Shown: positions 44,932 to 48,116, counted from the first letter of the stretch. The stretch: DNA of 64,000 bases from an uncultured Blastochloridaceae bacterium (GCA_964351865.1 CAYGPJ010000003.1:73553-137552), one strand, 5' to 3'. Numbers and translations are program-made. Notes: generated by a model not told the origin, from the sequence alone.

Positions 44932-44945
44932 CCCCGACCAACTGG

Positions 44946-45239
44946 CTCAAGGCGAACGGTGTTCACATTTCTTCAGGGAATGACTTGGTGTCGGGTTCAG
45001 AGGAAATGGCGGTTGCGAAATGAATGTCCGGATCCGGATTTGAAATAGGTCTCAAAAGCGAGTGCCTTCGATTTCGAGGGGAAAGCCGAATATCACGCCA
45101 GTTTCCACGGACGGTAAGGTGAAGTTGTTGGTTCAGAACCAGAGTTATGCGACTGTACTCTGGCCTTCAAACCCCGACGGTAGCCTACGTAATATTGGGT
45201 AGGTTTTTTCTCAGACTGCAAAATGTAAACATACTGCAT
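44946..45239 (-). pseudogene. GIY-YIG nuclease-family gene interrupted by an in-frame TGA (codon 49, 45093-45095)
   Basis: Not in the ORF track because both halves are under 60 aa. My translation is MQYVYILQSEKKPTQYYVGYRRGLKARVQSHNSGSEPTTSPYRPWKLA*YSAFPSKSKALAFETYFKSGSGHSFRNRHFL.... It is colinear with the intact paralog at 47204-47446 on both sides of the stop. Confidence 0.7.
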
Positions 45240-45483
45240 GGGTTGTTTGTAACTGACACCCCTCCTTTGGTCTATAGACAGAATACAGCATTGAGTAACG
45301 CGAGGGTTCTAGAACGGGCCGTGCCTTCCATAGCTTTAGCAAAGGAGGGAGCGGACCGACATATACCTTTATACAGAGCGCTTGTCTTGATTTGCAGCGT
45401 CTTTGCAACTTTTTCAATATCATCAAACGTCCTCCAATGTGAGTAGTTTTGTTGGTATTATTGAAGTTTTTATCACGTTAGTT

Positions 45484-46704
45484 TCATTTAATTCGCTTTT
45501 GTATCTGGAAGTGCCTCTCTCGCACTTCATCAATAATGCCTTGAGGGATATTTTCTTGAGTAGCTAAATCGGGCCAATGATTGAGGGCCTGTTCAGCCTT
45601 TTTGAAGATCTCCATAAATTCCTCATTGGGAATACCAACTTGTTCAGATAGAGATTTCATGACTTGTATCGGCGGCCAGACTTCACCCGCAATAGAAGTG
45701 CCTCTTTCGAGGTATCCCTCTCCGTAGGTCATATCATAAGCAGGGGTTAAAGACCACGATTTATGAGCTTCATCATACGCAAAAGAATGGTTCTTTCCAT
45801 GATCGTCATGATTGGACGAAAGAACATTAAAGACCATTCTTCGAGTTAACTCACGAAGCTCTTCCGGATCGCATCCCAGTTTGATAATGATGCGGAAAAG
45901 ATCACTGTAATCCATGCCTGCAGGGTCCTTATGTAACATGCCGCTGGACGTATGGAAATGGAGCCGCCTCTCAGGTGTCTTGGGGTCTGGTACATCAAAG
46001 CGTTTCACCAGTAAGTGACTGCGACCAACAGAACTGTCTTCAGAAATAAGTTTCGTCGAGACAGAGCGGATACCAGCAATTTCTGCCATTTTGGCATAAA
46101 CGTGTTCTTCGGCAGCTTTGCTGTTATTGGGAGATTGGTCAAATTTAAGGATGCTAGGCTCACCTTTACCGTCAGGAGAACCGACTTTCAATGTCCCGTC
46201 AGGATAGTGGAGGATCAGGATTTTAGGAAAGGCCCCCCCGGGTGTTCCTCCTCCTTTAGCCAATTGAGGGATCACCTCTTCTGCTTCACCACGCTCAATT
46301 TCTGCAGCATTCTTCGCTAGAGCGGCAGCGCCGATTTCCTCTAGTTTTTTAGAGTTAGAATCATCTAGTAATGCAGGAAAACACTGCAAGGCACCTAGGC
46401 CTCCGGATCCACGCCATGCCAGTAGCGGCATAGCAGTAGGCTTCCCCCATTTATTTTTAGCGAATTCCCTGCGCGCGATTTTTTGACCCCATGCATCCGG
46501 CAGGCAGTCTGTGATCAGCCCCGGAAGTTCATCAATGCCTTTGCTGCCATGATACGCCTCTGGTGTAAATGGGAGGCTGATCGGAGATAGGTTATGCCCT
46601 TTCCGTAACCAGTCTTCGTCATAGACAAAATAGATAGGTCCGCGCTGGATTAGGTGCCCGACTACTGATCCATCCCACCAATGGACCTCCAACTTTTTGT
46701 CCAT
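45484..46704 (-). CDS. hipA: HipA-family serine/threonine kinase toxin
   Basis: N-terminal coupling domain (LEVHWWDGSVVGHL...LPGLITDCLPDAWG) and kinase core with SSNHDDHGKNHSF, 406 aa. Confidence 0.9.
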   Translation of the reverse strand: MDKKLEVHWWDGSVVGHLIQRGPIYFVYDEDWLRKGHNLSPISLPFTPEAYHGSKGIDELPGLITDCLPDAWGQKIARREFAKNKWGKPTAMPLLAWRGSGGLGALQCFPALLDDSNSKKLEEIGAAALAKNAAEIERGEAEEVIPQLAKGGGTPGGAFPKILILHYPDGTLKVGSPDGKGEPSILKFDQSPNNSKAAEEHVYAKMAEIAGIRSVSTKLISEDSSVGRSHLLVKRFDVPDPKTPERRLHFHTSSGMLHKDPAGMDYSDLFRIIIKLGCDPEELRELTRRMVFNVLSSNHDDHGKNHSFAYDEAHKSWSLTPAYDMTYGEGYLERGTSIAGEVWPPIQVMKSLSEQVGIPNEEFMEIFKKAEQALNHWPDLATQENIPQGIIDEVRERHFQIQKRIK

Positions 46705-46705
46705 T

Positions 46706-47011
46706 TTAGACCCCTCTCGGGTGAGAGGCCCGCTTGCGCTGTGGCGCGGTTAGATCTCTAAGCCGTAATTCCGGAGTGGTCTCTGGAATGATTGCCCCCA
46801 ATTTATCCGCATATCCCAAAACTCCCAAAGCTCTTACCGCATGGCGTAACTCAACTGTCCCATCGCCAGCCTCAATCTTTCGGTAGGTGGGAATACTGAT
46901 GCCTAGAATTTTACACATATGAGCCTGGGATAAATTTCTGCGCAACCGCTCTTTTTGGATGCGATTACCCAATTCTTCCATAGCTTCATTTTCACCTAAT
47001 ATAGAAAACAT
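46706..47011 (-). CDS. hipB: XRE-family HTH antitoxin, HipB-like
   Basis: LGNRIQKERLRRNLSQAHMCKILGISIPTYRKIEAG. The stop lies 1 nt upstream of the hipA ATG. The start is uncertain: 47074, 47011 and 46981 are all in frame. Confidence 0.8.
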   Translation of the reverse strand: MFSILGENEAMEELGNRIQKERLRRNLSQAHMCKILGISIPTYRKIEAGDGTVELRHAVRALGVLGYADKLGAIIPETTPELRLRDLTAPQRKRASHPRGV

Positions 47012-47203
47012 GGTTTCTATAAGATGGCTATAAATGGTTTTAATGCAACTAAAATTTGTATTAAAACGGTTCATCTGCAGCCGAAAACGGCAGTGATGAC
47101 CATGTCCAGCACCGTAGCGGCGGTGGTGGTGGGCGCGACTGAAAACAGATTGAGGCAGGTGTTAATGCTTACTAAGACCGGACCTACCAATTTCCAGTGG
47201 CGA

Positions 47204-47446
47204 TTAAAGCAGGTGTCGAATGGTGAATGATCTTCCTGAACCTGATTTGAGATATCTCTCAAAGGCGTCCGCTTTTTCTTTTTCCGGGAAGGCCCAGTAG
47301 AAAACGATTTTCCAGGGCATGAAATTTTTCGTTGCGGTATCTGCACCTGCATTGTGCCGGGTGAGTCGTTTCTTGAGATCCGAAGTGGAACCTTTGTACG
47401 TTTTATCGGGGTGAGATGTGGAGCGGAGGATGTAGACGTAGTGCAT
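47204..47446 (-). CDS. GIY-YIG nuclease-family protein (small stand-alone type)
   Basis: MHYVYILRS...YKGSTSDLKKRLTRHN...PWKIVFYWAFPEKEKADAFERYLKSGSGRSF, 80 aa. Confidence 0.85.
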   Translation of the reverse strand: MHYVYILRSTSHPDKTYKGSTSDLKKRLTRHNAGADTATKNFMPWKIVFYWAFPEKEKADAFERYLKSGSGRSFTIRHLL

Positions 47447-47464
47447 AGGTTGATCCTACGTCGT

Positions 47465-48044
47465 GCCCGCCTTCGCACAAGGCTTCGGCGCGAGCCTTCG
47501 TCATGATAGAAATATCGCAAATCTAATGAGTTATCGGACATTAAAACTAGAAGGCGAGCTTGCTAGCCGAAGCCTTGGCGAAGGCTAGCGGGTGACCGGA
47601 CTACGCCTAGGCTACGTCCCGGCAGGCGAGATTATCCTTACAGGTTGCACCTGTGACGCTCTGCGGAAAGCACGTTGTGATGGTTGGATTGCCTTTCAGG
47701 CATAGCAGTTCCTCCGTCGCAGAGGCTATGGAGGACACGCGAAATAGGTTCTCATTTCTTTGGCAATGATTTCCCGCCTACGCACAAGGCTACGGCGCGG
47801 ACCTTCGCCAGAAAAAGAGATTGCGAGAGTGAGTTAGGAGAGTTGCAACCAGAATCAAAAGGCGAGCTTGCTGGCCGTAGCCTTGGCGAAGGCCAGCGGG
47901 TGACGAGAGGTTATCCTCACAGGTTACACCTGTGACGCTCTGCGGGGTGCACTTCGTGGGATTTGTACTGCCGTTCCGGCATGGCAGTCGAACTGCGTTC
48001 TCATCTCGTCAGGAAATGATTTAATACCAGAAAGGTATTAAATC
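47465..48044 (-). repeat. two tandem ~280-310-bp structured repeat units between the GIY-YIG gene and tRNA-Gly, each containing a copy of the tRNA-Gly 3' end
   Basis: Unit landmarks: A motif at 47469-89 and 47776-96; B motif (inverted complement of A) at 47566-85 and 47874-93; tRNA 3' copy AGCGGGTGAC at 47587-96 and CAGCGGGTGACGAGA at 47894-908; hairpin ACAGGT-nnn-ACCTGT at 47640-54 and 47919-33. Confidence 0.75.
48018..48044 (-). terminator. hairpin immediately 3' of tRNA-Gly
   Basis: GATTTAATACC-agaaa-GGTATTAAATC forms an 11-bp stem abutting the tRNA 3' end. The U-tract is weak (ATTTCC on the minus strand). Confidence 0.45.
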
Positions 48045-48116
48045 AGCGGGTGACGAGATTCGAACTCGCGACATCAACCTTGGCAAGGTTGCACTCTACC
48101 ACTGAGTTACACCCGC
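48045..48116 (-). tRNA. tRNA-Gly (anticodon GCC), no encoded CCA
   Basis: The reverse complement is GCGGGTGTAACTCAGTGGTAGAGTGCAACCTTGCCAAGGTTGATGTCGCGAGTTCGAATCTCGTCACCCGCT. The anticodon stem-loop is CAACC-TTGCCAA-GGTTG. Confidence 0.9.

Follow-up and report, generated by a model that had tools for sequence, protein, structure and literature searches.

The window considered here is the whole 64,000-nucleotide (nt) stretch of DNA from an uncultured Blastochloridaceae bacterium, and our subject is the islet that lies in it between the stop codon of an AraC gene (44931) and a tRNA-Gly(GCC) gene on the minus strand (48045–48116; ARAGORN; Rfam tRNA, 70.3 bits). The first-pass annotation of this DNA had read the minus strand, starting from the tRNA, as tRNA-Gly, two structured repeat units, a GIY-YIG gene, hipB, hipA and a broken GIY-YIG gene, and every one of these elements is present. 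The two units do carry copies of the tRNA 3′ end, 15 nt at 47894–47908 and 10–11 nt at 47586–47596, and the second GIY-YIG copy is indeed interrupted by an in-frame TGA, at 45093–45095. That reading had also reported no integrase or recombinase between AraC and the tRNA, and we agree; the parts just listed fill the interval (3.1 kb), so that there is no space for a recombinase gene. What had been described as two separate kinds of feature belongs together: the repeats and the GIY-YIG genes form one unit, a cassette that follows the 3′ ends of tRNA and tmRNA (transfer-messenger RNA) genes.

In this cassette the GIY-YIG gene is preceded by a module that comprises, from the RNA gene towards the start codon, a hairpin named IR-L, a variable loop, a half-site a′, a second hairpin named IR-R and a spacer of 1–60 nt. 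IR-L is a 28-nt hairpin that reads CCA-NCC-TTC-GC-N4-GC-TWC-GGN-TGG on the gene strand and whose stem takes in the last nucleotides of the tRNA. IR-R repeats this unit in inverted orientation (G-CCC-NCC-GWA-GC-N4-GC-GAA-GGN-GGG-C), at a distance of 1–60 nt from the start codon. In the 28-nt hairpin unit a purine internal loop (GWA/GAA) separates the 7-bp stem from a short distal stem with a very small apex. The half-site a′ (GCGAAGGCTG) lies just 5′ of IR-R and is complementary to the last two bases of the tRNA together with the 5′ arm of IR-L; we refer to the helix in which the tRNA end and the IR-L 5′ arm pair with a′ as H1.

The window holds three versions of this arrangement, all on the minus strand unless stated otherwise. 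Unit 1 (47772–48017) is a cassette with no open reading frame (ORF). It has a 5′ part (47909–48017), the exact 15-nt copy of the tRNA-Gly 3′ end (CAGCGGGTGACGAGA on the plus strand), IR-L (47870–47897) with the variable loop 3′ of it, the half-site a′ (GGCGAAGGTC) and IR-R (47772–47800), and a covariance model of the hairpin matches its two hairpins with E = 7.5e-10 and E = 0.0065. Unit 2 (47447–47771) is the module of the intact gene, and with 47204–47446 it makes an intact cassette. Here the tRNA fragment at 47586–47596 is followed by IR-L (47562–47589), the loop, a′ and IR-R (47465–47493), while two extra solo hairpins (47709–47736 and 47595–47623) lie within the 5′ part; the model matches have E = 4.2e-10, 3.3e-4, 5.6e-4 and 0.012. 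The units are ~300 nt each with a mutual identity of 75%, and when they are aligned the solo hairpins of unit 2 appear as clean ~30-nt indels. The GIY-YIG gene that follows unit 2 (47204–47446; Pfam PF01541, E = 5.7e-16) encodes 80 amino acids. The pseudogene near AraC (44997–45239; translation, Pfam, tblastn) is 51% identical to it and matches Pfam at E = 4e-13 (49.9 bits) when the stop is masked. A single hairpin in IR-L orientation (45323–45350, plus strand; 28.1 bits, E = 4e-6) sits 83 nt upstream of the pseudogene and is the module remnant of a decayed cassette, so that hairpin and pseudogene together are an old, decayed copy. The first-pass annotation had placed a possible helix-turn-helix (HTH) remnant in this region; the peptide has no Pfam match at E ≤ 10, and part of it is this hairpin of the cassette family.

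Run over the 64 kb with filters off, the covariance model returns seven significant matches, all within 45323–47897: IR-L and IR-R of unit 1, the same two of unit 2, the two solo hairpins and the one beside the pseudogene. A third copy of the first ~20–30 nt of the unit 5′ part (GAAATGTGAACACCGTTCG) occurs at 44953–44971, 26 nt past the pseudogene stop and adjoining the AraC stop. In a pattern search GAAATGWGAACNNNNTTCG was found three times in the window (44953–44971, 47740–47758 and 47989–48007), vs 0.01 expected, and two of these copies stand at the heads of the repeat units while one follows the pseudogene beside AraC. We also considered the 5′ part of the units as a decayed tRNA and rejected this: its matches to tRNA-Gly are only 8–9 nt long and are equalled by 9–22 of 500 shuffles, and Rfam gives no tRNA match. 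The tRNA-Gly gene does not encode CCA. An AT-rich hairpin, GATTTAATACC-TTTCT-GGTATTAAATC, abuts its 3′ side (48018–48044, minus; seen in the sequence, as inverted repeat I1 and in the fold) and is possibly a weak terminator; the terminator scan made no call at this hairpin. Two independent assemblies of the same organism (L001 and L090) have identical sequence or gene order. L001 (931 bp) and L090, which begins inside the repeat region, are short-read assemblies that break at the tRNA and within the units, and owing to such breaks metagenome assemblies likely under-represent loci of this kind or contain them in fragments.

A survey of homologs, with one genome per species, gave 80 loci with 82 GIY-YIG genes from more than ten phyla, among them Verrucomicrobiota, Acidobacteriota, Alphaproteobacteria, Planctomycetota, Lentisphaerae, Dependentiae (TM6), the candidate phyla radiation, Omnitrophica and KSB1. 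We counted a gene as associated when a same-strand tRNA or tmRNA gene ended no more than 350 nt upstream of it. This holds for a tRNA in 50 of the 82 genes and for a tmRNA in another 10 (three of these Rfam-confirmed), and two further genes follow a tRNA behind tandem module arrays. By the same measure only 9 of 638 control ORFs of at least 150 amino acids in the same loci have such a neighbour, against 60/82 for GIY-YIG. The RNA genes concerned comprise 16 tRNA identities plus tmRNA. In front of most of the other genes stands a 10–17-nt fragment, with CCA as its last bases, that resembles the 3′ end of a tRNA or tmRNA. All four of the closest homologs that have sequence context lie directly downstream of a tRNA (tRNA-Gly, tRNA-Ser, tRNA-Gly and tRNA-Val). 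No neighbour family recurs in more than three loci within 3 kb of the 80 loci, and hipA and hipB are absent there. The earlier suggestion that these genes might be biased in position towards tRNA genes or toxin-antitoxin loci therefore stands for tRNA and tmRNA and falls for hipBA and toxin-antitoxin loci.

The junction with the RNA gene is precise. Among the 30 loci in which a hairpin was detected beside the tRNA or tmRNA gene, IR-L starts at −4 from the RNA 3′ end in 20, at −1 in nine and at −6 in one (L040). Where the RNA gene lacks CCA, the partner arm fits the tRNA's own last bases, as GCT/AGC in the window and at locus L002 and as CCCAGC/GCTGGG at L040. Forty-two distinct hairpins have 96% of their cells paired and double-sided changes in 9/10 pairs; their covariation score is 0.557, vs 0.212 in shuffles (reached by none of 500), and slid controls collapse. 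The pair that closes the 2-nt apex (13:16), which had been left out of the selection of hairpins, covaries too (UA 21, CG 16), and covariation likewise links a′ to the 5′ arm of IR-L (permutation p < 0.0002). A long duplex between IR-L and IR-R, a possible RNase III-type stem, was rejected as a selected structure, since complementarity is no greater within a locus than between loci (p = 0.65) and there is no covariation. Comparison of the window with L002, where the IR-L junction adjoins a real tRNA-Gly, shows where the constraint lies: the IR-L block is identical in 48/48 nt and the block of a′ and IR-R in 35/35, vs ~76% identity in the ORF and ~45% in the loop, and the likeness stops at the stop codon. 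Rfam models give only tRNA and tmRNA matches in the window interval (E ≤ 5) and in eight canonical loci (E ≤ 1). L002 and L088 are from relatives in one sample; L088 has, at 40–80 (minus), at the contig end and upstream of a DUF6498 homolog, a hairpin of the cassette type, CTCCTCC-GTA-GTCCGGC-CACT-GCCGGAC-GGC-GGGGGAAG.

The hairpins have features that point to DNA and features that point to RNA. The GWA/GAA purines of the internal loop are nearly invariant and strand-specific, which argues that a single strand folds here and against a binding site in the form of a symmetric duplex. In favour of a role in DNA are the 2-nt apex and the inverted arrangement, which puts the GAA strand on opposite strands in the two hairpins. 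H1 on the transcribed strand and GGAGG in IR-R favour a role in RNA, in processing or translation control. A CCCTCC/GGAGGG variant of IR-R (L036, L028, L050, L067, L068, L076, L083) has a perfect Shine-Dalgarno sequence, GGAGG, as its 3′ arm; counted over all loci, GGAGG lies inside the IR-R 3′ arm in about ten, 3–13 nt before the start codon and paired to a CCUCC-like 5′ arm. To judge from this arrangement, sequestration of GGAGG in IR-R is likely a translational brake. Counts of G·U versus A·C mismatches, as a means of telling RNA from DNA, are confounded by the discriminator base. The two roles are compatible with each other.

The intact protein of the window scores 59 bits against PF01541 (cutoff 22.6). 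Its close homologs number over 760 and, with few exceptions, are 79–85 amino acids long, and the family amounts to 3788 clusters (50% clustering, E ≤ 1e-10). Residues Y3, Y5, Y17, G19, R27, H31, N32 and E63 are invariant in 37 homologs. The AlphaFold model (predicted local distance difference test, pLDDT, 95.6) has the elements E-E-H-E-H-H and shows the beta-beta-alpha-beta-alpha fold. A profile search of the PDB found UPF0213 (1zg2, BH0048, E = 2e-9) and SLX1 only, and all 12 Foldseek matches at E ≤ 0.004 are UPF0213, HIGLE or Slx1 proteins, with TM scores of 0.70–0.74 and a root-mean-square deviation of ~2 Å for Slx1. I-TevI, UvrC and restriction enzymes were not found at comparable significance in the profile and fold searches of solved structures. 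By sequence and modelled fold the protein thus belongs to the Slx1/HIGLE/UPF0213 clade, and it is predicted to be a nuclease. Slx1 and HIGLE cut branched DNA structures; we know of no activity for the 80-residue GIY-YIG subfamily, and neither NCBIfam nor PADLOC has a model that covers the protein. Gene calls in the family often give 100–150 amino acids with the domain beginning at residue 25–60. At L002 (138–413) and L079 (1424–1765) the extra N-terminus arises because the ORF stays open through IR-R, and the extended N-termini are probably an annotation artefact.

Several loci hold more than one cassette. At L079 two ~95% identical cassettes share their identity from inside tRNA-Gln, ~50 nt before its 3′ end, to the stop codon, and the second copy lies in a non-tRNA context. 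At L046 the identity spans IR-R to the stop codon and the second copy is pseudogenised (Trp to stop). Tandem arrays of modules occur at L008, L033, L041, L060 and L061, and those at L008 and L033, like unit 1 of the window, include modules that lack an ORF. Duplicates carry a variable 3′ fragment of the tRNA (10–50 nt) and finish at the stop codon, and this is why copies of the tRNA 3′ end are found in the window. The first-pass annotation had called such copies beside a tRNA classic for an integrated island; these attachment (att)-like sequences are not integrase cores but the place where the hairpin module joins the RNA gene on its left, at a fixed offset, and they have lengths of 10–50 nt. 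Nor are the GIY-YIG genes mere paralogs that flank a toxin-antitoxin pair, as it had supposed, since one belongs to an intact copy and the other to a decayed copy of an autonomous cassette of tRNA ends. The proteins carry almost no phylogenetic signal: nearest neighbours often belong to different phyla, as with KSB1 and Verrucomicrobiota (74%), the candidate phyla radiation and Alphaproteobacteria (78%) and Verrucomicrobiota and Bradyrhizobium (75%), and they are found at different tRNAs; mean identity is 0.569 within vs 0.543 between phyla.

Other genes also lie between or after duplicate cassettes, in a layout like that of hipBA in the window. At L079 (1763–5800) these are an NTP_transf_8 nucleotidyltransferase and an uncharacterised ORF, then a Gp49/HI1420 toxin-antitoxin pair, and at L046 (4240–6100) a NUDIX gene and an uncharacterised ORF; the NTP_transf_8 and NUDIX genes are cargo between two copies. 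The hipBA pair itself consists of hipB (46706–47074, minus; Pfam HTH_3; TIGR03070 couple_hipB, E = 5e-9), whose start is likely near 46984 (92 amino acids) and not at 47074, and hipA (45484–46704, minus; 406 amino acids; Couple_hipA and HipA_C, E = 1.3e-38). The hipB stop and the hipA start are 1 nt apart, and an HTH antitoxin is followed by a HipA kinase with Couple_hipA and HipA_C, so this is an ordinary type II toxin-antitoxin pair, unusual in its location only. Between hipA and the GIY-YIG pseudogene there are 244 nt of non-coding DNA. The nearest HipA relatives are from Verrucomicrobia, and a homolog at 79% identity lies in a RelB/ParE/PIN island that has no GIY-YIG gene. We prefer to regard hipBA as cargo, which may have arrived at the tRNA-end cassettes or have been captured by them.

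In 1-kb windows the mean G+C content of the 64 kb is 0.525 (standard deviation 0.025), and its minimum, 0.447 at 45001–46000, is about three standard deviations under the mean. From the pseudogene through the intact GIY-YIG gene the value is 0.43–0.50, vs 0.525 for the window, and G+C at third codon positions in hipA (0.438) is the lowest of 49 ORFs (mean 0.59, standard deviation 0.053). The description of the whole interval as an AT-richer islet hence applies to the hipBA stretch, a compositional outlier, and not to the repeat units, which at 0.53–0.57 are normal. Overall the earlier interpretation of the islet is partly supported.

Taken together, we read the islet as a selfish, single-gene cassette of tRNA ends that is present in three tandem copies or remnants, with hipBA between two of them, and we would give this reading a probability of about 0.55; the mechanism is the part that we infer. 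Directly observed, and carrying the argument, are the recurrent architecture, the precise junction, the covariation of the stems, the spread over phyla, the duplicates with their tRNA fragments and the Slx1-like fold. The cassette would be a selfish element that depends on read-through transcription started at the tRNA promoter; in the window a promoter-like site lies upstream of the tRNA only. The structure-specific nuclease that it encodes would have as its substrate the hairpin or cruciform formed by the DNA at the end of the tRNA gene, and the resulting break or nick would be repaired by copying a cassette-bearing template. Such repair copying could spread the cassette along with a variable 3′ piece of the tRNA and could build tandem arrays, and foreign DNA such as hipBA might be captured between cassette copies.

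Several points weigh against this reading. No filled and empty pair of one tRNA site was recovered among close relatives, so that we infer mobility from the duplicates and the distribution only. A search for the empty site through the flanking DUF6498 gene found homologs at 66% and 56% identity that are not syntenic, and scans of metagenome DNA for the unit 5′ part and for the tRNA-Gly/IR-L junction gave 0 matches each. There is one match among 2.9 million viral contigs and none in the plasmids of PLSDB, and so no horizontal-transfer vector was identified. Both hairpins lie upstream of the gene and do not flank it, and all seven hairpins of the window are inside the islet, so they do not form a dispersed repeat family there. 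The 80 residues of the protein are catalytic domain throughout, with no DNA-binding domain, and to our knowledge GIY-YIG nucleases do not transpose DNA alone. H1 on the transcribed strand and GGAGG in IR-R in about ten loci fit a role at the RNA level. Finally, the ~110–170-nt 5′ part of each unit in the window is unaccounted for by the cassette model.

The RNA-level features lead to the alternative of a host-integrated, tRNA-linked operon, in which the GIY-YIG protein has a cellular job in repair or nucleic-acid processing, is co-transcribed with the tRNA or tmRNA, and is preceded by hairpins that are RNA elements; these would part the tRNA from the mRNA, as a processing site or attenuator, and throttle translation, with no signal of mobility. 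The strict conservation of the catalytic residues over a family of 3788 clusters is in keeping with it, as is H1, which takes the tRNA's last two bases into a covarying helix on the transcribed strand, and the pairing of GGAGG in the IR-R 3′ arm to CCCTCC. A promoter scan found a promoter-like site 5′ of tRNA-Gly (48160–48132) and none between the tRNA and the GIY-YIG gene in the window, as an operon would have it. Small COG2827 "UvrC-like" GIY-YIG genes with no assigned role are known from Caulobacter, and one of them has an SOS box (PMC1839093), which again suits a job in the cell. Such an operon should not, however, be pseudogenised, as copies are in the window and at L046, nor exist in several copies per genome at different RNA genes (for example L044 and L060, both from one metagenome-assembled genome), and it is hard to see why any of 16 tRNA identities plus tmRNA should serve as its host. 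Copies of tRNA fragments in non-tRNA contexts, ORF-less modules in tandem (window unit 1, L008, L033) and a phylogenetic signal that is almost nil are further points that it leaves aside, and RNA hairpins do not usually have an apex of 2 nt with a covarying closing pair. We regard the host operon as unlikely.

An integrase-borne island would account differently for the tRNA-end copies: a hipBA element would have entered the 3′ end of tRNA-Gly at least once, the integrase would have been deleted later, and the GIY-YIG genes would be bystanders. The anticodon-stem region of tRNA genes is the classic crossover region of integrases, and the duplicated tRNA segment at L079 begins near the anticodon stem; multiple tRNA 3′-end copies beside the tRNA, AT-richer cargo and a toxin-antitoxin pair, typical of islands, point the same way. 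This history is nevertheless improbable. The tRNA-end copies are fused to IR-L at a fixed offset, as in the real junctions of other genomes, their lengths of 10–50 nt give no single att core, and the AraC border has no tRNA-end copy. No recombinase family recurs within ±3 kb of the 80 loci, and the 3.1 kb of the islet are too full for an integrase remnant. Least probable of all, in our estimate, and very improbable in itself, is a defence islet in which GIY-YIG and HipBA, placed at a tRNA hotspot, would act jointly against phages. Defence islands do contain kinases of the HipA family as well as small nucleases, and the cargo at L079 is toxin-antitoxin-like too. On the other hand, PADLOC has no model that matches the GIY-YIG protein or HipA, hipBA is missing from all 80 GIY-YIG loci, the closest relative of HipA has no GIY-YIG gene nearby, and one of the two GIY-YIG copies in the window is a pseudogene.

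The selfish cassette that we prefer has features in common with several known systems and is the same as none of them. Control of endonuclease translation by a hairpin is familiar from I-TevI of phage T4. Like the Seg genes of that phage, the cassette places a GIY-YIG gene among or beside tRNA genes with no intron or intein. Seg proteins have a C-terminal DNA-binding domain, whereas the cassette protein is an 80-residue catalytic core whose sequence and fold place it beside Slx1 and UPF0213 and apart from I-TevI and Seg, and the cassette is chromosomal across phyla, with a two-hairpin module and a junction at the tRNA 3′ end that is precise to the base. SegB, encoded in the T4 tRNA gene cluster, promotes by cleavage and repair the inheritance of itself and of flanking DNA (PMC2330249). 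With REP/REPIN-RAYT and IS200/IS605 the cassette shares short imperfect palindromes, a strand-specific motif and inverted pairs beside one small nuclease gene, and solo hairpins, known for REP/REPIN, occur in unit 2 of the window. Unlike REP/RAYT it has a GIY-YIG enzyme and not an HUH/Y1 transposase, its hairpins are both upstream and confined to tRNA ends whereas REP sequences are dispersed in hundreds of copies, and one of its hairpins includes the terminal bases of the tRNA. Slx1, At-HIGLE and UPF0213 proteins (YhbQ, COG2827) have the same catalytic residues, and no protein outside this group matches significantly in sequence or fold, but Slx1 requires Slx4 and carries a RING/PHD domain, and UPF0213 proteins have no known tie to tRNA genes or hairpin modules. 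Tyrosine-integrase islands likewise target tRNA and tmRNA 3′ ends, leave partial tRNA copies and bring cargo of toxin-antitoxin type beside the tRNA; the cassette differs in having no recombinase, variable fragments, ~0.4 kb with one gene, and a hairpin junction instead of an att core. The cassette is therefore akin to free-standing GIY-YIG selfish genes and to palindrome-plus-nuclease systems such as REP/RAYT, and that it constitutes a distinct class is a real possibility. A literature search, which included the literal hairpin sequences, did not find the association of tRNA ends, GIY-YIG genes and hairpins described; its coverage was incomplete, so an earlier description may exist.

A second tandem array in the window occupies 6976–7604 (minus strand) and follows tRNA-Ser(TGA) (7605–7691). 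Three further copies of the tRNA-Ser 3′ end (TCCCACCCTGTCCG; 7445–7462, 7307–7324 and 7136–7153) each head a unit of ~140–170 nt. These units have a different hairpin, ACCCACG-TTCAGCC-NNN-GGCTGAA-TGCAGCC-CGTGGGT, and two of them also have a small hairpin of the CTTCG...CGAAG type; there is no GIY-YIG or other ORF in the array (6976–7604).

We put forward only tentatively the broader proposal that the cassette represents a hitherto unrecognised class of selfish element: a ~0.4-kb combination of a minimal Slx1-like GIY-YIG nuclease and two inverted 28-nt purine-loop hairpins, targeted to the very 3′ end of any tRNA or tmRNA gene by structure and not by sequence, transcribed from the tRNA, spread across phyla and able to capture cargo with no integrase. 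Genomic islands classically land at the 3′ ends of tRNA and tmRNA genes, which is normally put down to integrases. If a single-gene cassette of GIY-YIG nuclease and hairpins does hold these ends in many phyla, many "integrase-less islands" and puzzling repeats of tRNA 3′ ends would be accounted for, and a role in the genome would be given to thousands of small genes whose annotation is "GIY-YIG nuclease family protein", "UvrC-like" or COG2827. Rfam could be extended by a conserved structured element that it lacks, and biochemistry would be offered a compact pair of structure-specific nuclease and substrate. Annotation is affected as well, as gene callers extend the cassette ORFs upstream, into the hairpins in the inspected loci, and assemblies break at the repeats.

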